From: Clostridiaceae bacterium
GTDB taxonomy: Bacteria; Bacillota; Clostridia; CAYPLH01; DUMO01
Assembly (NCBI GenBank): GCA_012839865.1
Contig: DUMO01000024.1
Coordinates: 19,075-83,074, forward strand
Reading direction: 5' to 3'
Length of the DNA: 64,000 nt
Each line of letters begins with the position of its first letter. Position 1 is the first letter of the stretch. A program made the position numbers and the translations under genes. Of the stretch, positions 19,858-44,100 are shown piece after piece. The notes under the pieces were generated by a model that was not told the DNA's origin, ran no database searches, and saw only the letters and a program-made list of their open reading frames with translations.

Positions 19858-20226
19858 TTAAGCCGGTAATTTGGCGTCAGGCTCATGTTCCGGGATATCT
19901 CGAATCTCCAGCCGGTTGCCGGTTTTAATCCCGCCAATCAAACCCTGCCCTGATTCCAACACCATACAGGCACCTTTGATTGGCGGAATTATTCTCCCGG
20001 GTTTTACACCATCAATTTTCCTGATTATCTCCATATTTTCACCAATAAAAAGCACATCAATGTCAAACCTCATAAAAAAGGTATGGATGCTCCTGCAGGG
20101 CTTTATAAGTATGGCTTCATGGTGCGGTTTTTTGCGGAACATGTATCCCGTGAGCCTTTTTAAAAAAGTATCTGCAATATAAACCTCCGCCACCTTCACT
20201 GATTCATAAATCAACGCTTTTTTCAC
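19858..20226 (-). CDS. DUF192 (COG1430) family protein, last gene of the Tad operon
   Basis: IADTFLKRLTGYMFR...IHTFFMRFDIDVLFIGENMEII matches the DUF192 pattern recalled from memory (ADTPEERxxGLMFR...FWMKNTxIPLDIIFID). Confidence 0.6.
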   Translation of the reverse strand: MKKALIYESVKVAEVYIADTFLKRLTGYMFRKKPHHEAILIKPCRSIHTFFMRFDIDVLFIGENMEIIRKIDGVKPGRIIPPIKGACMVLESGQGLIGGIKTGNRLEIRDIPEHEPDAKLPA

Positions 20227-20268
20227 ATTATCACCCTTAAGCGAAAATTTGCTGCCTTCAATGAACCG

Positions 20269-21216
20269 TCATCTGCTGAAAAATTGTATTAGCTGAATAA
20301 CGGCCGGTCCCAATATTATAATGAAAATAGCAGGAAAAATGAAAAATATCAGAGGAAACAACATTTTTACAGGAGCTTTCATTGCTTTTTCCCTGGCTGC
20401 ATGTTTTCGGTTTTCCCTTATTTGTGCTGCCTCTATCTTCAAAACCCTGCCCAGACCCACTCCAAGTTCATCGGACTGAATAACTGATGTTATAAACGTG
20501 CTCAATTCTTTTATTTCACAGCGTTCACACATGTTTTTCAAAGCTGTTTTACGCTCGAGCCCCATTCTTATTTCCTTAAGGCTTTTTGCAAACTCATCGC
20601 TGAGTTCTCCGTTTATATTGCCTACAACCCTTGACATAGCACCATCAAAGGACAATCCCGCTTCAACACTTGCAGTTATTAAATCAAGGGTATATGGCAG
20701 GTCCTTTAAAATTTTTCGCTTTCTGATTTCTATTTTCCTTGACAGAAAGAAGTTGAAGAAGAATGCGGTATACAACATGGAAATCCCCATAAGGACAAAG
20801 GATGCCAACAGGTTCCTGCCGGTTATAAACGAAAACAGACCTGCTGAAGCGGAAAAAAACAATATCACCATGCTTCTAAGGTACAGCCATTGTTCTTTTG
20901 TTCTGTTTTTCAATAGCCCGGCCTTCTCCAGTTTACTGTAAAATCGCTCTAATTTTTTATCTGTTATGACTTTGGACAAAATAAAATTAAAAACCTTGTA
21001 AAAAAGCATGCGCAATGTTTCCAGCAAATGCGTGCCATCTTCATTTTGCGGTTTAACGTCCCCTAAAATTCTAATTTTCCCTATTCTGTTCTCTACCAGA
21101 ATCCTGTTTTTAAATAAAATCACTGAAACTGCATAAGCTAGTAAAAATATTACCGCAAATGACAGCAATACAATGAACAGCAACAAACCTACCGCCCCCA
21201 AAAGCAAATCTTGCAC
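20269..21216 (-). CDS. tadC: Tad pilus assembly inner-membrane protein TadC (T2SS-F domain)
   Basis: N-terminal TM helix, a T2SSF domain and a C-terminal TM helix (LFPLIFFIFPAIFIIILGPAVIQ). Confidence 0.8.
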   Translation of the reverse strand: MQDLLLGAVGLLLFIVLLSFAVIFLLAYAVSVILFKNRILVENRIGKIRILGDVKPQNEDGTHLLETLRMLFYKVFNFILSKVITDKKLERFYSKLEKAGLLKNRTKEQWLYLRSMVILFFSASAGLFSFITGRNLLASFVLMGISMLYTAFFFNFFLSRKIEIRKRKILKDLPYTLDLITASVEAGLSFDGAMSRVVGNINGELSDEFAKSLKEIRMGLERKTALKNMCERCEIKELSTFITSVIQSDELGVGLGRVLKIEAAQIRENRKHAAREKAMKAPVKMLFPLIFFIFPAIFIIILGPAVIQLIQFFSR

Positions 21217-21424
21217 CTATAGGCCTCATGTCCTGTGCAATTACCATGCCACATTTCGCTTTCCGCGATTTGACACTTAAACCCGTTAAGGGACCTGTCT
21301 CTTTACATTTCAATGTTGACAATTTTTCTTATCATCAAAAATCCAAACAATTCACTCACTATGCCTGTGACTACCATAGCCAGACCTACAGGTGTGGTAA
21401 ATAAAAGAAGCATATAGCTTTTGT

Positions 21425-22273
21425 TCAGAACAAAAAAACAGCACATAAAAAAACCGGTATCAACATGACAACAACTCCGGACAATCTTCCCTGAGCTGTC
21501 AATGTTTTGAGCTCATTTTTAATTTTTTGCCTATCCCTGATCATTTCTGAAATATTGTCCAGGATCCCTGAGAGATTTCCCCCAACATCCTTTTGTATTA
21601 AAACAACATTTACCATCAGTTTTAAATCTTCTGATTCCACTCGAAACAACAAATTCTTCAAAGCGTCTTCTTCAGCTATGCCCAGGCTGATTTCTTTCAG
21701 CAGTTTCCTGAATTCCTTTGACAGAGGCTCCTTTGTTTCCTCAACCACTATGGATAATGATTGCAAAAATGAGTAGCCCGCTTTTAATGAACTTGATAAT
21801 ATGATAATTCCTTCATTCAACTGTTCATCAAATAGTTTTAATCTCTCTTTTTTCTTATATGAGATAATTATCCGGGGCGAATAATATGCAAATAAAGATG
21901 AAAGAATAGCAAAAATTGTGCTTCCTGCTGCATAATGGGAAAATATAGCAGCAATTAATGATAGTATCATTTTTATGGTTAGAACTTCTCGTACCGGAAT
22001 TGGTATGTCAGCCTTTATAAGGTCCGCTTCAAGCCTTTTTGCCCCCTTGCTGTTTGCAACTGCATCCGGTACAAGGCTTGATAAAAACTTTATAAGCCCT
22101 GTTTTGTCGTTTTTTGGGTTTTCATCATTCCCGGCATTTTTATCATCCCTGTCAAAAAATTTGATCTTGTCAATGGGTTTTTCCCTGCCGAAAATTTTCA
22201 TTAAAACAGCACTCATAAAGACCCATGCAAATATGAAAGTTAAAATGCCTGCAAAATACAGCATCCATATCAC
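21425..22273 (-). CDS. tadB: Tad pilus assembly protein TadB (T2SS-F domain); C-terminus probably truncated by a frameshift
   Basis: T2SSF domain protein. A 36-codon ORF in another frame (21303-21413) carries the expected C-terminal TM helix and IRKIVNIEM tail. See the finding on the A7/T7 tract at 21432-21438. Confidence 0.75.
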   Translation of the reverse strand: MIWMLYFAGILTFIFAWVFMSAVLMKIFGREKPIDKIKFFDRDDKNAGNDENPKNDKTGLIKFLSSLVPDAVANSKGAKRLEADLIKADIPIPVREVLTIKMILSLIAAIFSHYAAGSTIFAILSSLFAYYSPRIIISYKKKERLKLFDEQLNEGIIILSSSLKAGYSFLQSLSIVVEETKEPLSKEFRKLLKEISLGIAEEDALKNLLFRVESEDLKLMVNVVLIQKDVGGNLSGILDNISEMIRDRQKIKNELKTLTAQGRLSGVVVMLIPVFLCAVFLF

Positions 22274-22422
22274 CTTTACACATTTAATAAAGCTTCAGAA
22301 AGCCTCGGAATCAGTCAGGCTGCACCTGTGTCGTTTACAAGAAGAATTGCAAAATTCATAATTCCTGTGTCAGAGGATTTGCAAAATTATATTAAAGACA
22401 ACGGCTTAACACAAAACAATAA

Positions 22423-23760
22423 TCAATTGAAAATGCTTTGAGGTATGTTGATCCCCTTTTCCTTCAACTTTTTTACAAATCCGGGTACAATGCCTGTATA
22501 AACAAACTCACCTTTTACCTTTCCCCTGTTATCCACACCTTTTTGCTGAAACCTGAATATATCCTGCAGTGTTATTACATCTCCTTCCATTCCTTGCACC
22601 TCGGTTATATATGTAATCTTCCTGCTGCCATCCATAAGCCTTGACTGGTGAATAACAAGGTCAATGGCTGATGCAATCTGGTCCCTTATAGCCTTTAAAG
22701 GCAAGTTGAACCCCGACATCAACACCATTGTTTCAAGTCTTGCCAGCATGTCCCTTGGGGAGTTTGCGTGTCCTGTCGTAAGGGAACCGTCGTGACCCGT
22801 GTTCATTGCCTGAAGCATGTCCAGTGCTTCTCCTGACCTGACCTCTCCTACAATAATCCTGTCAGGACGCATTCTTAAGCTGTTTTTCACAAGATCACGG
22901 ATTGTTATTTCACCTTTCCCCTCCAGGCTTGCCGGTCTTGTCTCAAGCCTTATTACATGCTCCTGGGAAAGCTGAAGCTCTGCTGCATCTTCTATTGTTA
23001 TGATTCGCTCATCATTTGGTATAAAAGATGACAGTACATTCAGGGTTGTTGTCTTACCGCTTCCGGTCCCTCCCGAAACAATTATGTTCAGCCTTCCTTC
23101 GACGCAGTACCTTATAAGCTCTGCCATCTTTGAATTTAGAGTGTTAAAGCTGATCAAGTCCTCCATTTTAAAGGGGTCTTCAGAAAATTTTCTAATCGTA
23201 ATTGAAGGGCCATCTATGGCAAGTGGAGGAATAATGGCATTTACCCTGGATCCGTTAGGGAGCCTTGCGTCAACCATGGGAGAGCTTTCATCAATTCTCC
23301 TGCCAATAGGTGCTACAATCTTTTTTATTACATGCATCACATGGCTGTTGTTTTTGAATTTTACATCTGTCAGTACCAATTTCCCTTCCTTCTCAATATA
23401 TACCTGGTTATATCCGTTTACCATGATTTCAGTAACTTTATCGTCTCCAAGGAACCCGGTAATCGGTCCAATCCCGACAATTTCATCCAAAAGTTCCTCC
23501 CGGATTTTACTTTTCTGACTGGTTGTCAAGTTAAGGGCTTCCTGTTCGATATGCTTCGTAAGAATGGAATGAATTTTCTTTTTCAGTTCCTCGTTCTTAT
23601 CGGAGATTTCATCAAAATTAATATCCAGTTCATCAATTACCTTGTTATGTATCTTCATTTTTAAAATTGTATAAGGATCTGCTTTTTTTTCATTATACCT
23701 GCCAAATTTTCTGTCTGCATTTACCTCTTCCAGTCTTTTTACAAGAGACATTACCTTCAC
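22423..23760 (-). CDS. cpaF: Tad/Flp pilus assembly ATPase CpaF/TadA
   Basis: A VirB11/GspE-family secretion ATPase with Walker A SGGTGSGKTT and an Asp box. Confidence 0.9.
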   Translation of the reverse strand: MKVMSLVKRLEEVNADRKFGRYNEKKADPYTILKMKIHNKVIDELDINFDEISDKNEELKKKIHSILTKHIEQEALNLTTSQKSKIREELLDEIVGIGPITGFLGDDKVTEIMVNGYNQVYIEKEGKLVLTDVKFKNNSHVMHVIKKIVAPIGRRIDESSPMVDARLPNGSRVNAIIPPLAIDGPSITIRKFSEDPFKMEDLISFNTLNSKMAELIRYCVEGRLNIIVSGGTGSGKTTTLNVLSSFIPNDERIITIEDAAELQLSQEHVIRLETRPASLEGKGEITIRDLVKNSLRMRPDRIIVGEVRSGEALDMLQAMNTGHDGSLTTGHANSPRDMLARLETMVLMSGFNLPLKAIRDQIASAIDLVIHQSRLMDGSRKITYITEVQGMEGDVITLQDIFRFQQKGVDNRGKVKGEFVYTGIVPGFVKKLKEKGINIPQSIFN

Positions 23761-23761
23761 C

Positions 23762-24916
23762 TCACACCGTCAATTTGCTGCACATTTCTTCAATTGCCTT
23801 GCATACTTTTATTTTGTTGTATTTGTCGCTGTCGCATATAGGTTGTCCTCTATTGACTGACAAACCCACAATTTTGTCTTTTCTGGGTATCATTGCAAGC
23901 AAATTGTCCTTGAAGGTTTCTTCCACATCATTCTTGCTTACGCCATAACCTGCATCCATTTTATTAATAACAAGTTTCACCTTGCTTTTATCATAGCCCA
24001 GGGAACGCATTACATTTAACCCCAGTTTGGTATTTTTCAATGCTGTTATCTCCATGGTGGAAACAAATATAATCGTATGGGAGTAATCCAGAATAAAAAG
24101 AGTATTATCGTTGAAGTTGATGCCTGTATCAATTACCAGCACATCATAATGCTTCTGACAGGCTTTAATAATTTTTTCAATATCATTCCTTCCGATGTAC
24201 TCTGCAGCTTCCGGTTTCCCCGGGGCAAACATCATATGAAGGTTTTCATTGTAAATATACAGATATGGTATTATATTTTCATAAGAATCCAACTGGCCTT
24301 CATCCACCAGGTCCAGAATGCTTTTGTGATTAATCTGGTTGGTTAATATGGAGATATCGCCAAATTGCAAATCCATATCAATTAAAAGTACTTTTTTGTT
24401 CGGATTTTTACTTAACATGACAGCGCAGTTCAATGCCAAAACAGATTTTCCGACACCGCCCTTGGAGCTGAAAAAGGTTATGACTTTCCCTTCCCTGTCC
24501 TTCTCCTGACGGCTCAACATTTTTATCTGCCTGTCCCTGTATTTGGTATATGTAACCCGGATGGTCTCAATCAAATCGTCCACATTGAAAGGTTTTATTA
24601 TATATTCCTTGGCTCCGTTCAGCATCGCCTTTTTCAGGTATTCGCTTTCTCCCTGCACCGACATGATTATAACTATTACATTGGGAAAAGTATTTGTAAT
24701 CTGTTCGGTAGCCTCAAGCCCGTTTAATACAGGCATGTTTATATCCATAAGAACTACATCGGGATTTACTTTTGGTATAAGCTCCAGTACTTCTTCGCCG
24801 TTTGTGGCTTCCCCTACAACTTCAAAAATGTCGGACTCCATCAGTAATATCCTTTTAATCAGGGTGATAGTATCTATAATATCGTCCGCAATTAATACTT
24901 TGATTTTATTATTCAT
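23762..24916 (-). CDS. Response-regulator receiver domain fused to CpaE/TadZ-like ParA/MinD ATPase
   Basis: The REC domain is intact: an acidic pocket (LIADDII), the phospho-acceptor Asp in LMDINMP, and the conserved Lys in IIKPF. The P-loop is a deviant Walker A (SSKGGVGKS). Confidence 0.8.
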   Translation of the reverse strand: MNNKIKVLIADDIIDTITLIKRILLMESDIFEVVGEATNGEEVLELIPKVNPDVVLMDINMPVLNGLEATEQITNTFPNVIVIIMSVQGESEYLKKAMLNGAKEYIIKPFNVDDLIETIRVTYTKYRDRQIKMLSRQEKDREGKVITFFSSKGGVGKSVLALNCAVMLSKNPNKKVLLIDMDLQFGDISILTNQINHKSILDLVDEGQLDSYENIIPYLYIYNENLHMMFAPGKPEAAEYIGRNDIEKIIKACQKHYDVLVIDTGINFNDNTLFILDYSHTIIFVSTMEITALKNTKLGLNVMRSLGYDKSKVKLVINKMDAGYGVSKNDVEETFKDNLLAMIPRKDKIVGLSVNRGQPICDSDKYNKIKVCKAIEEMCSKLTV

Positions 24917-24929
24917 TGTGCCACCCCTG

Positions 24930-25895
24930 TCAATTCAATACTGGAATTTTAAGTACCTGTCCGGTTATGATAATATTCGGATCTTCAATATTGTTTGCTT
25001 CCATAATCAACTTGTAATTTTCATCGTTACCATAGAATTCCCGGCTGATTTTAACCAGGGTATCACCGCTTTTAACAGTATAATTTATATATTCAGTGCT
25101 GTTTGTTGCGTTATTGTCGTCTTCACAAGGTGTATCAGCATCTGTTTGGGAAGGTTCATCATAAGCCGGTATTGAAATCTCCTTCCATATTACTCCTTGG
25201 GTTTCTATTACACTGTCATCTTTCAAAGGCCTCAGGGCAAGCGTTATATTGCCTATGTTGTCAGCCAGTACAATCTTTTCCACATCAGTTGCGGCAACTG
25301 ACAAAGTAACTAAAAACATCGACGGAACATTTTCTGAAGACTTTTCTGTTTCATCCCTGTTTAACAGTTTATCAATTGCCAGGACTTCAATATTCTGAAG
25401 CAGCATCTTTGAAGAGTCATACCTGACAATCTCCGAATCCTCTGTTTTCTCGTCAAAAGTAGCGACTATATCAACAAAGTCACCAGGTTTGATTAATTGG
25501 GAAACCCCTGTGCTTCCTAATACGCTGATTGAAATTGCTCTATGGTTTTCCCTTACTCTAAGGCTCAATTCCGTTTCCAGGGCATCCAATAGCTTGTCAT
25601 GATGAAAGCCTTCATTTTTCAGTATGGTTTCCCTGGTGTACTTGCCTTCAATCTGGCTGTAATCACGCAAATAATCCGCAAAGATTGGATTATCTTCAAC
25701 TTCGATTTCTCGAATCATGTTCCTTTTAATTAAAGTTCTAGGAGGTATTACATCCGCGGCAACAAGAATTTTTGTCAAAGGAACTTCCTTTTCCGGCTCC
25801 TTTAAAGTTCTTAGATATACAAAAACAGCCACTGCAGCAATTGCAGCCAGCACAAATGATATTAAAACCAGTTTCTGTTCCGTACTTTTCATCAT
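24930..25895 (-). CDS. cpaB: Flp pilus assembly protein CpaB/RcpC with C-terminal LysM domain
   Basis: N-terminal TM helix, a SAF/CpaB core and a C-terminal LysM (YTVKSGDTLVKISREFYGN...TGQVLKIP). Confidence 0.8.
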   Translation of the reverse strand: MMKSTEQKLVLISFVLAAIAAVAVFVYLRTLKEPEKEVPLTKILVAADVIPPRTLIKRNMIREIEVEDNPIFADYLRDYSQIEGKYTRETILKNEGFHHDKLLDALETELSLRVRENHRAISISVLGSTGVSQLIKPGDFVDIVATFDEKTEDSEIVRYDSSKMLLQNIEVLAIDKLLNRDETEKSSENVPSMFLVTLSVAATDVEKIVLADNIGNITLALRPLKDDSVIETQGVIWKEISIPAYDEPSQTDADTPCEDDNNATNSTEYINYTVKSGDTLVKISREFYGNDENYKLIMEANNIEDPNIIITGQVLKIPVLN

Positions 25896-25902
25896 GATAC
25901 TC

Positions 25903-26880
25903 CTACCTTGACAGTTTTACACCGTATGCTCCCGTATCATTCAAACTCATATCTATTACACCTTTTGTAACGTATTGCACAAATCTGCCAACCAGCTCTG
26001 CATTTCCTCCGCTATTGCGCACTTCCTCAACATAAAACTGTGCAAAGCCCACCACCTGCACCTGGCCTCTTCCATTAACCTCAAGGGTATCCACCAACGG
26101 AAGTGTCCATAAGCGGATGGAATCTCTGCTGAAATTGTTAAAGGTGCTGTTCTCCTGCTGTATATAATCCCTTATTGCATTGATGGCGCCTGACATGTTT
26201 CCTGTTTCAGTATCAATATAATCTCCGACTGATAATGTACCGCTGAAACCATAAAGGGCATTGTTCCTGTAAGTGCTTTGCCCGGTGCCTCCAAGGGCAA
26301 CGGTGCCATAATTGCCGCAATAACCGTCTCCTGCGCCTTTTTTGAGTATTACGACATCACCATAGGTATAATCAAAAATTTCAACTGCAAAAGGTCTTAT
26401 TCCCCCATTCACAGTTTTTATTGGTCCTATAACCGCCTTTGTCGCAGCAGCCACATCACTGTTATATATGCCCAGTATGGGGGCGAACAAGTGGTTCACG
26501 CTCAAATTGCCTTCTATTTCAATGCTTTTATTGTCAGGGCTTATTTTAATTACGGTATTGTCAGGATCAATATTGTTTTTAATAAGATATTCCAAAGCGA
26601 CACTTCTTGCCTTCGCTTCACCGGCAGGCAGCTCAAGAGCCGCTGCCAGGGCTGCTGCATCAATGGCATTGTACAATCTGGCTTTTTCTATATATACCAT
26701 CCCGACATCAACAGAAAGGGCCATAAACCCCAACAAAGCGCTTAGCAGCAGGCATGTAATAATTGAGACGCTTCCTTTTTTGCCTTTAAACAGCAGCAGC
26801 TTCTTATGACTCCTTGCCTGTACCATTCCGGATAAGGCAAGCAATTCAAAAACTGAATGTTCCACTGTCATCACCTTCAT
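25903..26880 (-). CDS. TadG-like (TadE/G-like N-terminal domain) pilus-associated protein
   Basis: KGSVSIITCLLLSALLGFMALSVDVGMVYIEKARLYNAIDAAALAAA is the TadE/G-like N-terminal motif. The remainder is a large Gly-rich extracellular domain. Confidence 0.6.
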   Translation of the reverse strand: MKVMTVEHSVFELLALSGMVQARSHKKLLLFKGKKGSVSIITCLLLSALLGFMALSVDVGMVYIEKARLYNAIDAAALAAALELPAGEAKARSVALEYLIKNNIDPDNTVIKISPDNKSIEIEGNLSVNHLFAPILGIYNSDVAAATKAVIGPIKTVNGGIRPFAVEIFDYTYGDVVILKKGAGDGYCGNYGTVALGGTGQSTYRNNALYGFSGTLSVGDYIDTETGNMSGAINAIRDYIQQENSTFNNFSRDSIRLWTLPLVDTLEVNGRGQVQVVGFAQFYVEEVRNSGGNAELVGRFVQYVTKGVIDMSLNDTGAYGVKLSR

Positions 26881-27206
26881 TCAATTCTCATGGAGACTTT
26901 GGCATGCAGTACAATTGTGTCGTTGAACAATAGATTAATTACAGGTACTGTAAGTTGATAATTATAATTTGCTTCCACGGTAAGAGTATTTCCTGATATC
27001 CTGCTACCCGGAAGCGGTGTTATATTAATTTCCAGATGGCTTTCATCCAGGACAGGAGAGGCAGACATCATCAAATGCATTATTTCAGCATCTGAACTAC
27101 CTGTAATGCCTGCCCTGGCTCCTTCCCGGACTGCGTTGTTAAGTGCAAGATATGCATTTAAAACCATACCAAATTGCGCAATTCCCATAACAATTATCAG
27201 CAGCAA
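26877..27206 (-). CDS. TadE-like pseudopilin (N-terminus probably extends upstream to about 27266; start codon unclear)
   Basis: In-frame upstream codons read GGQSLAEFAVVLPLLLIIVMGIAQFG. This is the classic TadE-like processed N-terminus. RBS AGGAGG is present at about 27240. Confidence 0.6.
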   Translation of the reverse strand: MLLIIVMGIAQFGMVLNAYLALNNAVREGARAGITGSSDAEIMHLMMSASPVLDESHLEINITPLPGSRISGNTLTVEANYNYQLTVPVINLLFNDTIVLHAKVSMRIE

Positions 27207-27288
27207 GGGTAGGACAACTGCAAATTCAGCAAGGGATTGCCCTCCTGGTAGATATAAAAAGTCACATTATGTAAAGTAATTAGGTCAT

Positions 27289-27383
27289 AAAAAAACAGGG
27301 ACTTTGGTCCCTGTTTCTACTGTTCAGAAAGACATAAAAAATGAACAGCAGCCCTGACAATGCTGTTTACAGCCGTTGTTCAT
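27289..27383 (-). terminator. Tandem rho-independent terminators after the degS/degU-like operon
   Basis: The first is CAGGGACcaaaGUCCCUG followed by U7. The second is a long imperfect hairpin (AUGAACAaCgGC...GCuGcUGUUCAU) followed by U6. Confidence 0.6.
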
Positions 27384-27480: not shown

Positions 27481-28155
27481 CTATTCCTTGTTGCCAAACT
27501 TCGACTTATAATAATCTTCGATATTATTCTCAATGGAAAAGATGGTTGCCTGGACACGATGGCTTACGTTCAGCTTCCTGAAGATATTGGTAATGTAGTT
27601 TTTCACCGTCTTTTCCGATATATACAGGGCATCCGCTATTTCCTTGTTGCTCAAACCTCTCGATATATTAAGCAAAATTTCAATTTCCCTCTGTGAAAGA
27701 CAGTCAAAAACACCTTCGGCATTTTTATTTTTTATTTCTGAGAACAGCAAAGATATCAGCGCTTTATCAATATACTTTTCTCCATTATAGACTGTTCGAA
27801 TTGCACTCACAATCTGAGTTCCTGCAGAATCCTTCAGTACATATCCGTCTGCTCCTATATTAATTGCCTTGTTAATCGTCAGCCTGTCATTCTCTATGGT
27901 AAGCATAATCACTTTGACATTCTCATATTGCTGCTTTATTTTTTGGAGCAATGTAATACCGTCAATAACCGGCATATTTACATCCAGCAGCAATACATCA
28001 GGCTGATACCTTTTCAGCATGACCATTACTTCTTCTCCGTTTTTTGCTTCACCATAAATGGCAATATCATCTTCCATGCTTATAATTCTTCTTAAACCCT
28101 GTAGTATCAGGTCATGATCATCTGCAATCGAAACTCTAATTTCCTTTTTTTTCAT
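27481..28155 (-). CDS. DegU-like response regulator (NarL/LuxR family)
   Basis: A REC domain (ADDHDL, LLLDVNMP) and a C-terminal LuxR-type HTH (LSQREIEILLNISRGLSNKEIADALYISEKTVKNY). Confidence 0.85.
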   Translation of the reverse strand: MKKKEIRVSIADDHDLILQGLRRIISMEDDIAIYGEAKNGEEVMVMLKRYQPDVLLLDVNMPVIDGITLLQKIKQQYENVKVIMLTIENDRLTINKAINIGADGYVLKDSAGTQIVSAIRTVYNGEKYIDKALISLLFSEIKNKNAEGVFDCLSQREIEILLNISRGLSNKEIADALYISEKTVKNYITNIFRKLNVSHRVQATIFSIENNIEDYYKSKFGNKE

Positions 28156-29185
28156 CCTTAATCACCTCTCGATTAACCGGCAGCTTTATGGTATATGTGG
28201 TCCCTTTCCCTTTTTCAGACTGTATCTTTAAACTGCCCCTCAGTTGATTTACCCTGTCCTCTATACCTATCAATCCATAAGAAATCCCCTTGTTTCTTGC
28301 GTTTATCAAGGTTTCCTCCACGTCAAACCCAATACCGTCATCAGATATAACCAGCATTAAATATTTCGTGCCATAATCAAGCTTGATTTGAGCATGGCTT
28401 GCCCTGGCATGCTTTTTTATATTATTAAAAGCTTCCTGGATAATACGATAAACTGCAACTTGTATGATAGGCTCAATTTCTTTATGTACTGGCTTCATTT
28501 TTATGTCCAGTTCTATTCCTGTCTCGTGCATTATCATTTTTACGGTCTCGGAAATTGTTTCATTCAAACCCAAATCATCCAGCGCCATGGGTCTTAAATC
28601 AAAAATGATATCCCTTACTTCCTTAAGGGCCCTTTTGACACTTTGTTTCAGGTCTTCCAATTCTTTAAGGCCTTCGTTGAAATCCCTTTCAATCACCATC
28701 TTGCAAATATCTGCCTTCATTACTGCATTGGCCATATGCTGCGCCGGCCCGTCATGAACATCCCTTGCAATTCTCTTTCTTTCGTTTTCCTGGGCCTCCA
28801 ATATCTTTATGCTCAATTGTATTTCGGAATGGGCCTCAGCACCTTCCAGGGCTGTAACAACATCCCCCTCCAGGTACATTAAAGCAACACTCATCTGACT
28901 CATCACTTTTTCAGCACTTTCAATATTCTGCAATGATTTTTTCAATGCTATTTCTATTATTGACCTCCTTTTTAACAGTTCCTTCTCTTTGTTTTTTTCG
29001 ATAATCAGTGCTATTCGAGTGTCTTCTGCGTTTTTATAGGCAGCTTTAATATCTTCTTCCGTAAATGTATCAAACTTTTTTGAAACCTCTGCAAGTTTTT
29101 GTCTCGCAACTTTATCCTGCTTTTCCAGTTCATCCACCCTTGCAATAGTCTGCTTGATATCCTGTTTAATTGCAGCCAACTCCAT
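28136..29185 (-). CDS. DegS-like cytoplasmic sensor histidine kinase
   Basis: No TM segment. An N-terminal DegS-type coiled-coil sensor domain and the H-box [18 protein letters not shown] (compare DegS IHDGPAQMLANVMMRSEL). HATPase_c follows. The gene overlaps the regulator start by 20 bp. Confidence 0.85.
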
Positions 29186-31212
29186 TTCAAGATTCTCGGA
29201 GACGGAGTCGGTGACGGTGTCGGTGTCGGAGTCGGTGTCGGAGTTGGCGTCGGTGTCGGAGTCGGTGTCGGAGACGGTGTCGGTGTCGGACTCGGGCTCG
29301 GACTCGGGCTCGGGCTCGGCGACGATGTCGGCGTCGGGCTCGGGCTCGGACTCGGCGACGGACTCGGGCTCGGGCTCGGGCTCGGACTCGGACTCGGGCT
29401 CGGACTCGGGCTCGGCGACGGACTCGGCGACGGACTCGGGCTCGGTGACGGAGTCAATTCAGCCGGGTTTATAACAGCGCTGATTACCCTGACTTCCTGG
29501 GTTACCGTAAAGGTTACGGGAAGCATATTATCTGCCGAAATTTCCACGTTTGCCGTATATACTCCGGCCGGCAGCCCGTCTTTTGCCCTTATGGTAAATG
29601 TGGTGGAAGGTGTCACCTCATCAAGATTTTTAGCTTCAGGCTGGGTGATTTCAAAGGCATCCGCATCATCCCCGCTCAAGGTTACCGTAAGATTTGCAAT
29701 ATCCTCAGTTGCCTCCCTTGTCACTGTTATACTCCTTGTCTCCTGCATACCGGAAGCATAACCTATACCAAGTATCGTCATAACCTGATCGTCGATAGGT
29801 ACTATACTGCCTGTTGCCCACCTGGCATAAAGCGTGACGTTACTGTCACCCATGACAAGGGTCGAGCCTTGCAAATAATCCGCTCCTTTTCCATCGGCTT
29901 TGGTGTTCCAGCCTTTAAAGACATGACCTGTTTTTGACAGTTCATTGATGTTACCCGTGACAGTAACAGTTTGTCCCGGCTTATATACATTGGTGTCAAC
30001 GGGCACATCGCCCCCGGTATTCCCGTTCCCGTCATAGGTTACAGTGTAAAAGTCAACTTCCGCAACATTGAAGGTGTATCCATTAGGCAGCTTGCCGGGT
30101 GCAGTTATGTTGAGATCTATTGTAAAGTTCTCTTCACCCGTCAGTGTCAGCAAATAAGGCTGACCGTTCTCCACCTGCTCATCGTTTATGGTAATAATCG
30201 CGCCTTCCAGTGAAACTTCCGGTATAATGCTGAAACTCTCCAGTTCTTTTGGTATTTCCAGTACATAGTCGCTTATGTCCTTATTGAATGAAGGCATCAG
30301 ATCAAACCCGGGCAGTCCTTCAAATATCACGTTGTCTATATATGCCGGTGCAATGGCGGAGGACTCTACAGGCGCAGGATACATATCCACTACAAACATG
30401 TCTTTAAATTTATAGCTGTCATTTACCTTTATTTCAGCTGCCAGTACACACTGCCCTGCCTTCAGCGCTTTAAGGTATCCATCCTCTAACACTGCATTTT
30501 GGTCATCGGAGGCCATCCATATACCCGCTGCTTCGTCATTTTCGCCTGTTATTCTCAGAATTCCGCCTCCGAGATAAACCGGGTTTTCCTTTGGTATAAC
30601 CGAATATACATCCAAAGTATCATCAGATGAAACCTTCTGGATATCTCCCGTTATGCGCATAAGTTCCTTCTCACCCTGGGGTACCACAGGTTGCTGGTTG
30701 CCTTTAAAATGATAAATATAGTTCTTTATAATTGTAATCGGCTCATCGCCAAACCCATACACAATTTCATTCTTGCTTGTAATCAAAAGGGTGCCGAACC
30801 CCCGCCTCATATAAGCCGGATTATCCGTTATTTCAATGGCATTTTCCCTGTAAAAACCCTCGATGAGATTATGCCGTATTCCAAGGCCATAAGTACCCGG
30901 CCAGAGGAACGTGGTTTCCCCGTCAATTTTAAAGTGTGTCGGGACGGTGACGTATATGGTTGAATCATCTTCCACATTTACATTCTGGTAACCGATTATA
31001 TATTCATTACCTCCCGCGTCTTTCAGATACACTTCCCACTGGTCCGGATCATCCCTGAGGTAGCTTAGGTTGTCCCCCTTTATCTGAATAACCCTGTATT
31101 TGTCTTCATGATACAATTTGTTGGGAGAAATATATGAATATTGTACATTCGGCATATCCACAAAGGACGGCATGGCAACCACGTAGGCTTTTAAGTATGA
31201 CGTATGATTCAC
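29011..31212 (-). CDS. Cell-surface-type protein with cadherin-like and Listeria-Bacteroides repeat domains, ending in an SP/TP linker; probably a fragment or fusion
   Basis: A cadherin-like beta-sandwich ([10 protein letters not shown]...SFSIIPEV), a Listeria/Bacteroides repeat ([13 protein letters not shown]...[12 protein letters not shown]) and a C-terminal (SP)n(TP)n tract. There is no signal peptide. The last about 60 codons are an out-of-frame read through the degS-like start. Confidence 0.5.
29186..29460. repeat. Tandem 12-bp repeat array (GAGTCGGTGTCG-like units) encoding an (SP/TP)n linker on the minus strand
   Basis: A direct read shows about 22 near-identical hexamer and dodecamer units. 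They translate to PSPSPS...TPTPTP in the frame of the upstream surface-protein gene. Confidence 0.9.
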
Positions 31213-31361: not shown

Positions 31362-31529
31362 ATGCGGAAATTTAAAAAGTCCTATGATGCGGGAAAAGTA
31401 AATATATCTTATTCTTCAGGCGGAAAGATGATATTCTTTAAAAAATTACTGGCTGCGATCTTGTCAATACTTATATGCGCTACACTTCCGGTTTGTATTT
31501 TTTACGAAAGTCTGAGGGCGAGCAGGTGA
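31362..31529 (+). CDS. Small (55 aa) predicted membrane protein
   Basis: A strong RBS AAAGGAGG lies 7 nt before the ATG. It has a basic N-terminus and one TM helix (IFFKKLLAAILSILICATLPVCIFY). It falls below the ORF-track length cutoff. Confidence 0.35.
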   Translation: MRKFKKSYDAGKVNISYSSGGKMIFFKKLLAAILSILICATLPVCIFYESLRASR

Positions 31530-31564
31530 AGTATTGCTTAAAATGCTTGATCAGGTATTTTGGA

Positions 31565-32344
31565 TCAGAAAACCCGCATTCCAACGAAATATCTATCACC
31601 TTTTTTTGTGCCCAGAAGCAACTTGGCGGCATGTTCACACCTGCTGTAATATAGCATGTTCAAAAAGGTTGAACCGAATTTTTCTTTAATGTCGTGGGAT
31701 AAATGGTAAAGACTTATATCAAGCTCTTCTGCAATATCTTTAAGACTTGGATTCAACTCAAATTTGCTCCCCAGGCAATTTATAATTTTTCTGAGCCTTT
31801 GCACCAGCTTTTCATCGAAGGCTTCAGTGCCGTATCCCCAGCGTAAAAAGTCGAAATTGTATGTAACATGAACAAGAAGTTCTGTTAAATTATTCTTTAT
31901 GCTTGCCGAATACCCGGGTTGGAGCCTGTCGCCATTTACCGCCAGAACGAGCCTGGCGACATGCTCTTTGAGTTCATTGTACCTTTGGGGCAGTTCCCCT
32001 TCGAAATAGGCGGAACAGCAATAGATATACAAGTACTTGTTATCCGGAAAAAGGTTTCGAAAAAATTCCCCTGAAATCTGTATAATCAGCGTTTCATTAT
32101 TTTCGCTTTGACTAATGCAATGCAGCTCGTTAACATTTACAAGTGCTATATCGTTTTCTTTTAATTGAATTTTTTCATCACCGATGACCATATTGACTGA
32201 ACCCTTCCGGACTTGCACAATTTCCATAGTATCATGCCAATGATAGGGATACTTCCCAACATAACCGGAAAACATTTTTACAGGCAGTCCTTCGGAAAAA
32301 TCAAATAACTCAGGACGCATACATTCCCCCGTTATATAAAGCAA
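31565..32344 (-). CDS. AraC family transcriptional regulator (cupin sensor + AraC HTH)
   Basis: An N-terminal cupin-like domain and a C-terminal AraC-type HTH pair. Confidence 0.8.
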   Translation of the reverse strand: MLYITGECMRPELFDFSEGLPVKMFSGYVGKYPYHWHDTMEIVQVRKGSVNMVIGDEKIQLKENDIALVNVNELHCISQSENNETLIIQISGEFFRNLFPDNKYLYIYCCSAYFEGELPQRYNELKEHVARLVLAVNGDRLQPGYSASIKNNLTELLVHVTYNFDFLRWGYGTEAFDEKLVQRLRKIINCLGSKFELNPSLKDIAEELDISLYHLSHDIKEKFGSTFLNMLYYSRCEHAAKLLLGTKKGDRYFVGMRVF

Positions 32345-41176: not shown

Positions 41177-44100
41177 TTATTCTGCAGTGCTGTTTATTAC
41201 CACCTTGCTGAGGTTGATTGACCAATATGGTGCAGCAGGCGGATCATTACCGTCATGGACGGTTTTATTGAGTGCGTTTACTTCACCGGTCGGTCTGATC
41301 TTGATCTTATATATACCATCGCTCAGCACAGGGCTTGTGTATATGAGCACATCCGAGGTTTTAGCTTCCGCATACACATCTACAAGCTGCTCTGCAATAA
41401 CAACTTTATCATTTGCATCAAGGATGCTGATTGCAACGATACCTCCATATGGGGCGTTCTCTGCGTATACCGATATGCCAATGCCCTTGAATTTGTAAAC
41501 TACATACGCATCTGTGGCACCCCTGTCATTGTATATAGTCTTAGCCCCGCTAACTGCCCATTTGGTTGTTGCCTTGCCATGTAAATTCATGGCAGTACCG
41601 TCGGAAAATGTATATTGGTTAAGTTCATCGCCTTGATTTGCCTTGTCAAAATTCAGTGTCACCTCAGTCGCTACTGGTGCTGTGGCTTTGTTTATAACTG
41701 TAATTTTGAAGAGGTTGACAGACCAGTACGGTGCAGTCGGAGGATCATTGCCATCGTTGACGGTTTTGTTATTTGTATTTACTTCGCCTGTAGGTCTGAT
41801 CTTGAGCACGTAGACACCCTTGGCAAGTTCGGGGCTGGTGTACACAAGGGCATTGGCTTCCTTGGCCTCAGCATACAGGTCCACAAGCTCTTCTGCCTGT
41901 ACAACCTTTCCGTTTTCGTCAAGTATGCTTATTGCAACAATTCCGCTGTACGGAGCCCGTTCAGCATACAGCATGACCTGAGTGCCTTCAAATTTGTAAG
42001 CCACGTAAGCATCTGCCGCACTCCTGTCGTTGTACAGGCTCTTTCCTCCACTGACGGCCCATTTGGTTGTTGCCTTGCCATACAAGTTACCGGCAGTACC
42101 GTCGGAGAATGTGTACTGATTTACTTCTGTGCCCTGGTTTGCTTTATCGAAGTCCAGAGTCAGCTCTTCCGGGGTCTCCTGCTGGGCAGGTGTCGGTGTC
42201 GGCGTAGGTGTTGGTGTAGGTGTGGGTGTAGGTGTGGGATCAGGTGCCTTGCTGGCAATGGTGACTTTACTTAAATTGATAGACCAGTAAGGTGCCGTCG
42301 GAGGATCATTGCCATCGTTAACGGTTTTGTTGTTTGCATTTACTTCACCGGTAGGTCTTACATTGAGCACATAAATACCCCTGGCAAGTTCCGGACTGGT
42401 AAATACAAGAACATTAGCCTCTTTGGGGTCTGCATACAGATCCACAATCTCATTGTGTACAACGCTGCCATTTGCATCAAGTACGCTTATTTCAACTTTA
42501 CCGCTATATGGTGCGCGTTCAGCATACAGGGAAATCTGTGTACCCTCAAACTTGTAAGCAACATAGGAATCTGTTGCACCCCTGTCGTTGTACAGGGTCT
42601 TTCCTCCACTGACTGTCCACTTGGTTGTTCCTTTGCCATACAAAGTAGCTGCAGTACCATCGGAGTATGTGTACTGGTTGACATCGGTACCCTGGTTGGC
42701 CTTGTCAAAATCCAGAGTCAGTTCTGCCGGTATTGCAGGTGTAGGTTCAGGTGTCGGCTCAGGTGTCGGTAAAGCCGTTCCTTTAACAGCAACACCAACT
42801 CTGCTCACATTCACAGACCAGTATGGAGCAGTCGGAGGATCATTGCCATCGTTAACAGTCAGGTTGTTCTTATTGACTTCACCTGTAGGTCTTATCTTTA
42901 GCTTATATGTGCCCAAATCAAGTCTGGGGCTTGTGTAAACAAGTACATTCTGTTTTCTTGCTTCTCCATAAAGATCAATTATTTCTTCTGCATGTATGAC
43001 TTTGTCATTTGCATCCAGTATGCTTACGGCTGCCTGACCGCTGTAAGGAGCATTTTCACCAAACAGCAATATCTGTGTACCGGTGAAGGTAAATATAACA
43101 TAGCTGTCCGGTGCGGCTCTGTCATTATACAAGCTATTGGCTGAACTTATTGTCCAGTTGGTAGTTCCTTTACCGAATATTGTGGTTCCAGTTCCGTTAT
43201 CATAGGTAAACTGGTTAATTCCGGTACCATGGTTGTCTTTGCCGAAATTGTAATATTCAATTACTTCACCGGGCCATGGAGTCGGTGACGGGTCTGGAGC
43301 GGGTGTAGGTGTAGGAGTCGGAGTCGGTGATGCATCCGGTACGGGTGTCGGTGTCGGTGCTGCGGGTACAGGTATCGGGGTAGGCATCGGTATTATACCC
43401 CAGTAAAGGTTTTCAAGGAAACGGATATCCGGGGCGGCGCCAGAAGCAAGCCTGGAATTTCCGCTTGCACTTAAAGTCCTGGATACGGCATAACCTTGAA
43501 TATCAGAATTGCCACCCAGCGCGAGTTCTGCATTCGGTGCATAGATAACACCTGCATCAACTTTTACATTTCCATCAGCTTTCACTGAACTTCCACCTGC
43601 TACGAGATTGCCAACCAGTTTGCTGTTCCCGCCAAATTCAACATCAGCCTTCTGAGCATATATGGAGCCGTAAATTGCAGTATTCCCGCCAATAGTTACC
43701 TTATTGCTTCCCAGATAGTAAATTATAGCATCGTCGGGGTTGCCTCCTGCATTGATTCCCATGCCTTCAATCTCAATACTGTCTTTTACAAACAGAATCA
43801 ATTTGCCATTCCCTGTTTTGTTTATTTTTATGCTTCCATTCTGGGCTATTTTTAATGTATTGCAGGTTATAATTATATCCTCGTCGCCAATATCCACCCA
43901 TAACGGCTTCCTTATCAGTACATTGCCATAGGCAGCACTTTCGCTTATGGCAGCTTTTCCTACAGCTAATGGACTGGTGGCCAGGTCTCCCCTGTTCTCG
44001 AGAACGGGAACATCAGGAGCATTCGGCATGCGATAATCTCTGCCTGCTGATGCAAAGGTCTCACCCTTCACAGTTGCAGAACCGGAAACAGATATGCCAT

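Follow-up and report, generated by a model that had tools for sequence, protein, structure and literature searches.

The window analysed here (a 64-kb stretch of contig DUMO01000024.1 from a Clostridiaceae bacterium) carries on its minus strand an operon for a Tad (type IVc, Flp) pilus, preceded by the genes of a DegS/DegU-like two-component system. An earlier note, made from the letters alone, had given the gene order and domain assignments of this operon, and these were reproduced by open reading frame (ORF) listing and Pfam over the minus strand from 19858 to 27245; the DegS/DegU-like pair directly upstream (Pfam) and the tandem terminators between degU and the tad genes were likewise recovered. 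No secretin domain was detected by Pfam in any operon product, and neither TadD nor RcpB occurs in the cassette, a state without secretin being expected in Tad systems of monoderms (PMC6916266). The operon is, however, damaged at tadE, at tadB and, upstream, at degS, which the earlier note had not noticed. The locus very probably belongs to a conserved family of clostridial Tad pilus cassettes and is in decay, having been broken recently, and the copy in the window is, judging from its sequence, almost certainly non-functional.

Within the 64-kb window, no Flp pilin was found by motif scan, by tblastn with the proteins of relatives or by family hidden Markov models (HMMs), and no A24 prepilin peptidase (TadV/CpaA) by tblastn or family HMMs, in agreement with the earlier note. 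The family HMMs were run with --max over all six-frame segments of at least 20 aa; the best E-values in the window were 4.5 for Flp and 0.32 for TadV, and the flp of the same species scores 86.8 bits. Contigs of this species account for the missing pilin. Set against contigs L001/L009/L013 (blastn and exact-flank comparison), the window is 308 bp short where CCAGGA meets GGGCAA: the two flanks are separated by 308 bp in those contigs and by 0 bp in the window, L008, L010, L011 and L014. A 2-bp GA microhomology lies at the junction. The JGI contig Ga0211716_1001583 (L001/L009), which is 99.95% identical to window positions 27244-17592 (4 substitutions and one gap in 9.65 kb), encodes a 66-aa Flp (MFNGLRQYFLSKLSNKKG/QGMVEYALIIGL...), a 136-aa TadE that begins MKIWVKPVKYLRSQR-GQSLAEF, and a 320-aa TadB. 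Its flp sits exactly between degU and tadE and carries the typical site G/QGMVEY. Flp is thus absent from the window because the 308-bp deletion removed it, together with its -10 box, 5' untranslated region and ribosome-binding site (RBS) and with tadE codons 1-15; by this comparison, the absence of the pilin is a recent gene loss and not a new architecture.

The same deletion left tadE without a start codon. The match to the TadE profile (positions 1-43 of 43) begins upstream of the first ATG, GTG or TTG, while positions 1-9 of the family HMM are absent from the window. The frame opens with ...PGGQSLAEFAVVLP after a TAA, and no ATG or GTG precedes the first in-frame TTG, at 27206, which falls inside the hydrophobic helix; the processing site G/QSLAEF is retained. 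Translation of tadG is probably coupled to that of tadE, since the tadG ATG overlaps the tadE stop codon (ATGA), and loss of the tadE start would therefore have uncoupled it.

The elements of the degU-flp spacer were located by RNA folding and cross-species alignment; a consensus terminator scan missed the degU terminators, and a consensus promoter scan of the intact flp spacer gave no sigma-70 site. A weaker hairpin with a T-run (27383-27336) precedes a strong terminator (27316-27289), which consists of a perfect 10-bp hairpin and T7 (RNA fold z = -3.57) and whose GGGAC...GTCCC+T7 hairpin is kept in relatives. In the intact spacer the terminator is followed by two TGACTTTT-like boxes at a distance of 21-22 bp; next come a -35-like element (ATCTNCC), a -10 box of TATAAT type, a leader of 50-70 nt and the RBS. 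The direct repeat TGACTTTT-N13-14-(G)TGACTTTT was observed upstream of ATCTNCC and TATAAT in many species (spacers L018-L069), and its strict form GACNTT-N14-17-GACNTT in 16 of 53 spacers versus 0.035 expected from shuffles, a count that shows conservation and is not a probability, as the spacer sequences are related. At the flp promoter, this repeat may serve as an operator for DegU. Both boxes (TGACCT, 27287-27282; GTGACTTTT, 27265-27257) and the -35-like element (ATCTACCA, 27253-27246) survive in the window, over 27287-27246. With the -10 box gone, the tad genes that remain are probably no longer transcribed from the native promoter.

Table 1. Features of the Tad locus and its upstream flank (window positions)
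Feature	Position	Strand	Evidence
DUF192 (UPF0127), last gene of the operon	19858..20226	-	PF02643 51.9 bits, above gathering score; DUF192 fold
tadC, T2SSF platform protein, intact	20269..21216	-	Pfam T2SSF; family HMM 405 bits; identical in conspecific contig L009
tadB pseudogene, T2SSF platform protein	21303..22273	-	Two frames, 21425-22273 and 21303-21446
cpaF/tadA secretion ATPase	22423..23760	-	T2SSE 223.6 bits; TIGR03819 330 bits
REC-CpaE	23762..24916	-	Response_reg 92.1 bits (residues 1-120); AAA_31/CbiA/ParA
cpaB/rcpC with C-terminal LysM	24930..25895	-	RcpC 86.7 bits; TIGR03177 137.9 bits; LysM 49.7 bits
tadG-like pseudopilin	25903..26880	-	PF13400 41 bits; identical in contig L009
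tadE remnant, codons 16-136	26877..27242 (open frame to 27245)	-	PF07811 59.1 bits
308-bp deletion junction	27242..27244	-	CCAGGA/GGGCAA, 2-bp GA microhomology
flp promoter/operator remnant	27245..27288	-	Cross-species intergenic alignment
Terminator region 3' of degU	27289..27383	-	RNA folding; hairpin kept in relatives
degU-like NarL/LuxR-family response regulator	27481..28155	-	Pfam REC and GerE
degS-like cytoplasmic histidine kinase, 5'-truncated	28136..29185	-	Pfam DegS, HisKA_3 and HATPase_c
Surface-protein ORF, Flg_new repeat and long Pro/Ser/Thr linker	29011..31212	-	733 aa

The second lesion lies in tadB, which is split at a T7 run (21438-21432, minus strand) where intact alleles have T8. 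Family HMM positions 1-276 were found in one frame and positions 271-318 in the other, the last 47 residues being encoded in the other frame 3' of the run; one added T restores a protein of 320 aa, which is a single ORF in conspecific contigs. TadB and TadC are both recognisable as T2SSF paralogues (Pfam, family HMM), the former in frameshifted form. The change from T8 to T7 is the sole gap in the 9.65-kb alignment to L001. T7 was observed in the window, L008 and L011, and T8 in L001/L009, L003, L010 and L012-L015. Elsewhere in the window, the gene of an AraC-family regulator (31480-32344, minus strand) is split by an A7 run (31607-31601) into a 259-aa ORF with AraC_binding and half of HTH_18 and a 52-aa ORF with the remaining HTH; with A6 there, the frame would again read ...LLLGTKK-VIDISLECGFSDPKYL... 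Lying less than 12 kb from the tadB lesion, it is the second frameshift in a homopolymer.

The third lesion concerns the kinase. The degS match begins at position 35 of the Pfam DegS profile and at position 36 of 385 in the family HMM, the first ~35-40 codons being absent (DegS proteins of relatives comprise 390-395 aa). At codon ~40, with a junction at about 29186-29200, degS is joined to the Pro/Ser/Thr linker of the surface-protein gene, which reads out of frame into it; this junction is identical in all conspecific contigs that cover it (independent assemblies L008-L011). The surface-protein ORF occupies the place where many relatives have tadV. Apart from the missing profile positions 1-34, the kinase (DegS sensor domain, HisKA_3, HATPase_c) and the regulator (REC, GerE) have the architecture of DegS-DegU. 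Further variants were found in the species: in L009, an flp+ contig, degS has the change Q97* (codon 97 corresponds to window 28897), and the degU start (28155-28153) is ATG in the window and ATA in five contigs (L008-L011 and L013), where only a 198-aa product lacking the acidic pocket would remain. Such predicted loss-of-function variants of degS (Q97*) and degU (ATG/ATA) segregate within the species. The surface-protein gene itself (Flg_new, or Listeria-Bacteroides, repeat with PS/PT linker) lacks both a C-terminal domain and its own stop codon. On contig L009 (663-4823) it encodes 1386 aa, the portion 5' of window 30519 having no blastn match to the window; its linker, too, is polymorphic.

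Given the lesions in flp/tadE, tadB and degS, the strain would be unable to build a Flp fibre from the window locus. The DUF192 and REC-CpaE proteins of the window recur, identical or 99% identical, on metagenome contigs, and the occurrence of the lesions could be followed from sample to sample. Window proteins also correspond to HHV59294 and HHV59298, which belong to a third-party MAG at NCBI labelled Clostridiaceae bacterium. The deletion, with identical junction, was present in contigs from the biogas-fermenter runs DRR066657, DRR066658 and DRR066660, in the last of these in both the ENA and the Logan assembly, and was absent from two JGI metagenomes. DRR066657 and DRR066658, each with a single assembly, were alone in showing T7, which never occurred without the deletion; T8 was detected in both assemblies of each of DRR066659 and DRR066660. 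By this run-by-run pattern, the alleles form a series from flp+/T8 through deletion/T8 to deletion/T7. The remaining genes are nearly identical between the alleles, and the decay must therefore be very recent. The start of contig L012 (position 1-2), from DRR066659, coincides exactly with the right-hand flank of the 308-bp deletion, which suggests that the assembly graph broke there because flp+ and deleted alleles coexist in that sample.

Relatives were collected by an alignment scan with REC-CpaE, one genome per species, which gave 495; the closest 80 loci were annotated with HMMs built from reference cassettes and iterated once (the TadV model was built on 24 sequences), and the counts that follow take only loci whose contig covers the relevant position. 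The 80 loci, whose REC-CpaE identity reaches as low as 39%, belong to Clostridiaceae, Caloramator/Thermobrachium, Fusibacter/Peptostreptococcales, Thermoanaerobacterales, Oscillospiraceae and Syntrophomonadaceae. The conserved order is (tadV)-degS-degU-flp-tadE-tadG-cpaB-REC-cpaE-cpaF-tadB-tadC-DUF192. Flp precedes tadE in all loci (61/61), and some relatives have 2-3 flp copies, in tandem and inside the locus. The DegS-DegU pair lies upstream in 44 of 48, about 46 of 74 relatives have LysM on CpaB, and DUF192 follows tadC in 48 of 61, its co-occurrence with Tad across Clostridia having been named beforehand as a test. A TadV-like gene was found in 21 of 45 loci (18 upstream of degS, 3 between flp and tadE) and was absent from 24. 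The same gene order was evident, by neighbourhoods with precomputed Pfam annotation, in a Ruminiclostridium metagenome-assembled genome (MAG), in a Clostridium genome whose DUF192 protein is named for C. ljungdahlii DSM 13528, and in the nearest relative (L016/L018; 77% identity, the best among the GTDB species representatives returned), which has no tadV within 10 kb. The locus had been described as unusual in composition, yet REC-CpaE, LysM-CpaB, DUF192 and DegS/DegU are all standard parts of this cassette. Its seemingly odd features are the norm for the family; only the absence of flp is exceptional, and the deletion explains it. Two loci from MAGs, L045 (8030-11149) and L043, keep only DegS-DegU-REC-CpaE; when L045 was read through, flp, cpaB, cpaF, tadB/C and DUF192 were all gone and the Walker A (SSKKGVGKS) and DxD region of CpaE degenerate, which marks it as a further cassette in decay; an MCP gene flanks it. 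In L091 (Caloramator sp. mosi_1, NZ_CP117677.1), although listed as a complete genome, the cassette is fragmented, with 3-4 pieces each of degS, degU, cpaB and REC-cpaE, which suggests an indel-rich long-read assembly rather than biology.

The earlier note had offered three explanations for the missing pilin: that it is encoded elsewhere, that TadE/TadG are the only fibre subunits, or that the locus is a Tad-derived machine with another function. None of them is supported, as flp lies between degU and tadE in the same species and at that position in all 61 testable relatives. A split but functional system, in which the window operon supplies the machinery and the pilin and prepilin peptidase come from elsewhere in the genome, would fit the 24 of 45 relatives without tadV in the locus, the nearest (77%) among them, the several flp copies of some relatives, and the peptidase that Bifidobacterium breve encodes at another locus (PMC6916266); in Bdellovibrio, PilD processes Flp (bioRxiv 10.64898/2026.07.08.737194). 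The extra flp copies are, however, tandem and in-locus, conspecific contigs have flp at exactly the same place, the deletion also took the tadE start and the promoter -10 box, and tadB is frameshifted, all of which make a split system very unlikely. We give still less credence, indeed almost none, to a Tad-derived machine working without Flp, whether with TadE/TadG as its sole fibre subunits or in a non-pilus role such as secretion. The remaining seven genes are indeed intact and identical or near-identical to those of flp+ alleles, but with 4 substitutions in 9.6 kb the separation is too recent for intact genes to have decayed; moreover, TadE lacks start codon and leader, the translation of TadG is probably coupled to it, TadB is broken as a platform protein, and no relative (0/61) lacks flp.

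Two further alternatives concern the lesions themselves. The deletion and the homopolymer frameshifts could be consensus errors of assembly or sequencing in a locus that is really intact, since the source is a MAG and both frameshifts within 12 kb (tadB T7, AraC A7) fall in homopolymers. An identical junction in three sequencing runs and, for DRR066660, from both assemblers, its absence from two unrelated JGI samples, and a T7/T8 state consistent per sample across assemblers (DRR066659, DRR066660) render such an artefact highly improbable. The tadB T-run might instead be a reversible phase-variation switch (T8 on, T7 off), the frameshift being regulatory and not degenerative. Slippage switches are known from Bifidobacterium pilus genes (PMC9187656), and T7 and T8 alleles coexist within one reactor series. 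But T7 occurs only on a background already without flp, and the tract encodes Val-Phe-Phe-Val, with T6-T8 runs scattered or absent in relatives and neither length nor position kept. As the tract is not conserved, phase variation is unsupported, and we consider it unlikely. Several points weigh against a decaying cassette as the full account. The window comes from a metagenome assembly, so that each lesion is the dominant allele of a sample and not that of a clone, and the break of L012 at the junction hints that both alleles coexist. The view spans 64 kb, and a second flp or tadV may lie elsewhere in the genome. Genes besides tadE and tadB are intact and nearly identical between alleles, loss of function being read from sequence; DegU control of the flp promoter, REC-CpaE phosphorylation and the role of DUF192 are likewise inferences.

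In its intact form, the cassette would comprise, upstream of a terminator, a cytoplasmic kinase of DegS type and a NarL-family regulator of DegU type, followed by a flp promoter with two TGACTTTT boxes that presumably depends on DegU. The operon would then supply Flp as prepilin (G/QGMVEY), TadE and TadG as pseudopilins, a CpaB-LysM protein that may be anchored to peptidoglycan in place of the diderm secretin complex, a MinD-like ATPase of CpaE/TadZ type that bears a canonical receiver, CpaF as motor, TadB/TadC as platform and a DUF192 protein of the cytoplasm. The receiver of CpaE may act as a phospho-switch on assembly or positioning of the machine. About half of the lineages would draw the prepilin peptidase from the cassette, and the others from elsewhere. 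In the window this arrangement appears to have been broken by an illegitimate 308-bp deletion of the flp -10 box, flp and the tadE start, by a 1-nt loss from the T8 run that frameshifts tadB, and by loss of the first ~35-40 codons of degS through fusion with the upstream surface-protein gene.

Several operon products deserve comment as members of their families. CpaF scores 330 bits with TIGR03819, under the strict cut-off of that model (373), and differs from the protein of contig L009 by two amino-acid changes (K208R and M209T). The LysM of the window CpaB (PF01476, 49.7 bits) is C-terminal, at residues 272-318. No specific NCBIfam model was found for REC-CpaE, TadC, Flp or the Tad-linked DUF192 subfamily. 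Another large ORF in the window (41177-46462, minus strand; 1761 aa) encodes a large surface or secreted protein that has a DUF7305 domain besides weak matches of lipocalin-like and Por_Secre_tail-like type.

The receiver of CpaE had been called a genuine REC domain, with acidic pocket, phospho-acceptor Asp and conserved Lys. This assessment held throughout the family: D11, D12, D58, S86, K108 and P109 are invariant in 80/80 members, as is the deviant Walker A KGGxGK[S/T] (KGGVGKS in the window). Among PDB sequences, the N-terminal part matches CheY and Spo0A (E about 1e-20; about 45% identity to Thermotoga CheY) and the C-terminal part the ParA-family ATPase 3EA0 and MinD. When only the ATPase half served as query (E up to 0.01), the Eubacterium rectale TadZ (3FKQ) was undetectable by sequence, and it was not among the 60 best matches shown for the full-length protein. 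TadZ was reportedly found by Xu et al. in 2012 to carry an atypical receiver. Receivers of TadZ proteins have been described as atypical protein-interaction modules (bioRxiv 10.64898/2026.07.08.737194); set against these, the canonical and strictly conserved phospho-site on CpaE is, at the level of sequence, a real difference of the family from the usual TadZ, and the receiver can probably be phosphorylated.

That DegS might be the phosphodonor, as the earlier note had proposed, is of low to moderate likelihood. In favour is the synteny (44/48, 92%), and the receivers of REC-CpaE and DegU are 37% identical. Against it, alpha1 reads E-T-(V/N) in REC-CpaE and (L/I)-I-G in DegU, each conserved within its own family, and alpha1 positions set the specificity between kinase and regulator. 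The CpaE receiver is, in addition, at least as similar to CheY and Spo0A as to NarL-type receivers.

The Tad-linked DUF192 protein is cytoplasmic, without signal peptide or transmembrane segment, and its subfamily has the invariant residues R24, C44, H48, D57 and E91. The association of DUF192 with Tad, which had seemed inexplicable from known Tad biology, is no peculiarity of this locus, being present in 48/61 loci and known since 2025, when Bulleidia extructa, other Erysipelotrichales and Helcococcus ovis were independently reported to have DUF192 as the 3' gene of their tad operons, with no function assigned (PMC12786226). The linkage is real and wider than earlier reported. As a guess of low confidence, DUF192 could be a cytoplasmic accessory of the CpaF-TadB/TadC platform.

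Comparison with known systems places the cassette among the Tad loci. With Aggregatibacter actinomycetemcomitans (flp-tadV-rcpCAB-tadZABCDEFG) and Caulobacter crescentus (pilA-cpaA-K) it shares the Flp prepilin (G/XXXXEY), TadE/TadG, RcpC/CpaB, the TadZ/CpaE MinD-like ATPase, the TadA/CpaF motor, paralogous TadB/TadC and the A24 peptidase. In contrast to both, it lacks secretin, TadD and RcpB, as expected for a monoderm, and has LysM on CpaB, a canonical CpaE receiver, the DegS/DegU pair and DUF192; the window copy differs further in lacking flp and tadV and in its broken tadE and tadB. The E. rectale TadZ occupies the same operon position and has the same receiver-like N-terminus and MinD/ParA-like C-terminus; the clostridial receiver is canonical, whereas TadZ is described as atypical in both receiver and ATPase. 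Among monoderm systems, those of Bifidobacterium breve and Micrococcus luteus are described without RcpC (PMC6916266), unlike the clostridial cassette, which has RcpC/CpaB. For Bulleidia extructa, whose tad operon like that of Helcococcus ovis has a 3' DUF192 gene, the description (PMC12786226) mentions neither DegS/DegU nor a receiver-CpaE, and a coiled-coil gene follows DUF192 in Bulleidia, where in the clostridial window DUF192 is the operon's final gene. The closest analogue of the cassette DegS/DegU is PprA-PprB of Pseudomonas aeruginosa, a kinase and NarL/LuxR-family regulator inside the tad locus, where the NarL-type two-component system directly activates flp (PMC3510237). The cassette differs in its soluble kinase, with DegS sensor domain and HisKA_3, and in the second receiver on CpaE. 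The likeness to Bacillus subtilis DegS-DegU, which has the same architectures and a kinase without transmembrane segment, is one of domain architecture alone, and the window degS lacks the N-terminal ~35-40 codons. To our knowledge, B. subtilis has no Tad locus.

For the window, the result is mostly corrective and of modest import: a Tad machine that seemed to lack a pilin is an ordinary one broken recently, and the comparison of strains separates architecture from decay. Type IVc pili of monoderms have been studied only in Actinobacteria (PMC6916266), and the clostridial Tad variant is conserved and experimentally uncharacterised. Hundreds of clostridial genomes, including those of tractable acetogens (the C. 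ljungdahlii/C. autoethanogenum group), share the compact cassette of 11-12 genes, with its canonical TadZ/CpaE, dedicated two-component system and operator-like repeat, wall-anchored CpaB and unexplained DUF192. It is conceivable, though we advance it only tentatively, that Clostridia carry a phospho-regulated monoderm Tad machine, in which the CpaE receiver would gate assembly or positioning post-translationally, DegS/DegU would drive flp via the TGACTTTT repeat and might feed the CpaE receiver, and DUF192, with its invariant Cys, His, Asp and Glu, would count as a core Tad component not recognised before. On this reading, the several independent loss-of-function alleles within the species would reflect selection against piliation in stirred biogas reactors. 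The questions of the CpaE phospho-switch, the DegS/DegU operator and DUF192 are worth following in an intact relative, where the cassette allows direct tests of how bacteria with a single membrane switch on Tad assembly and position it.

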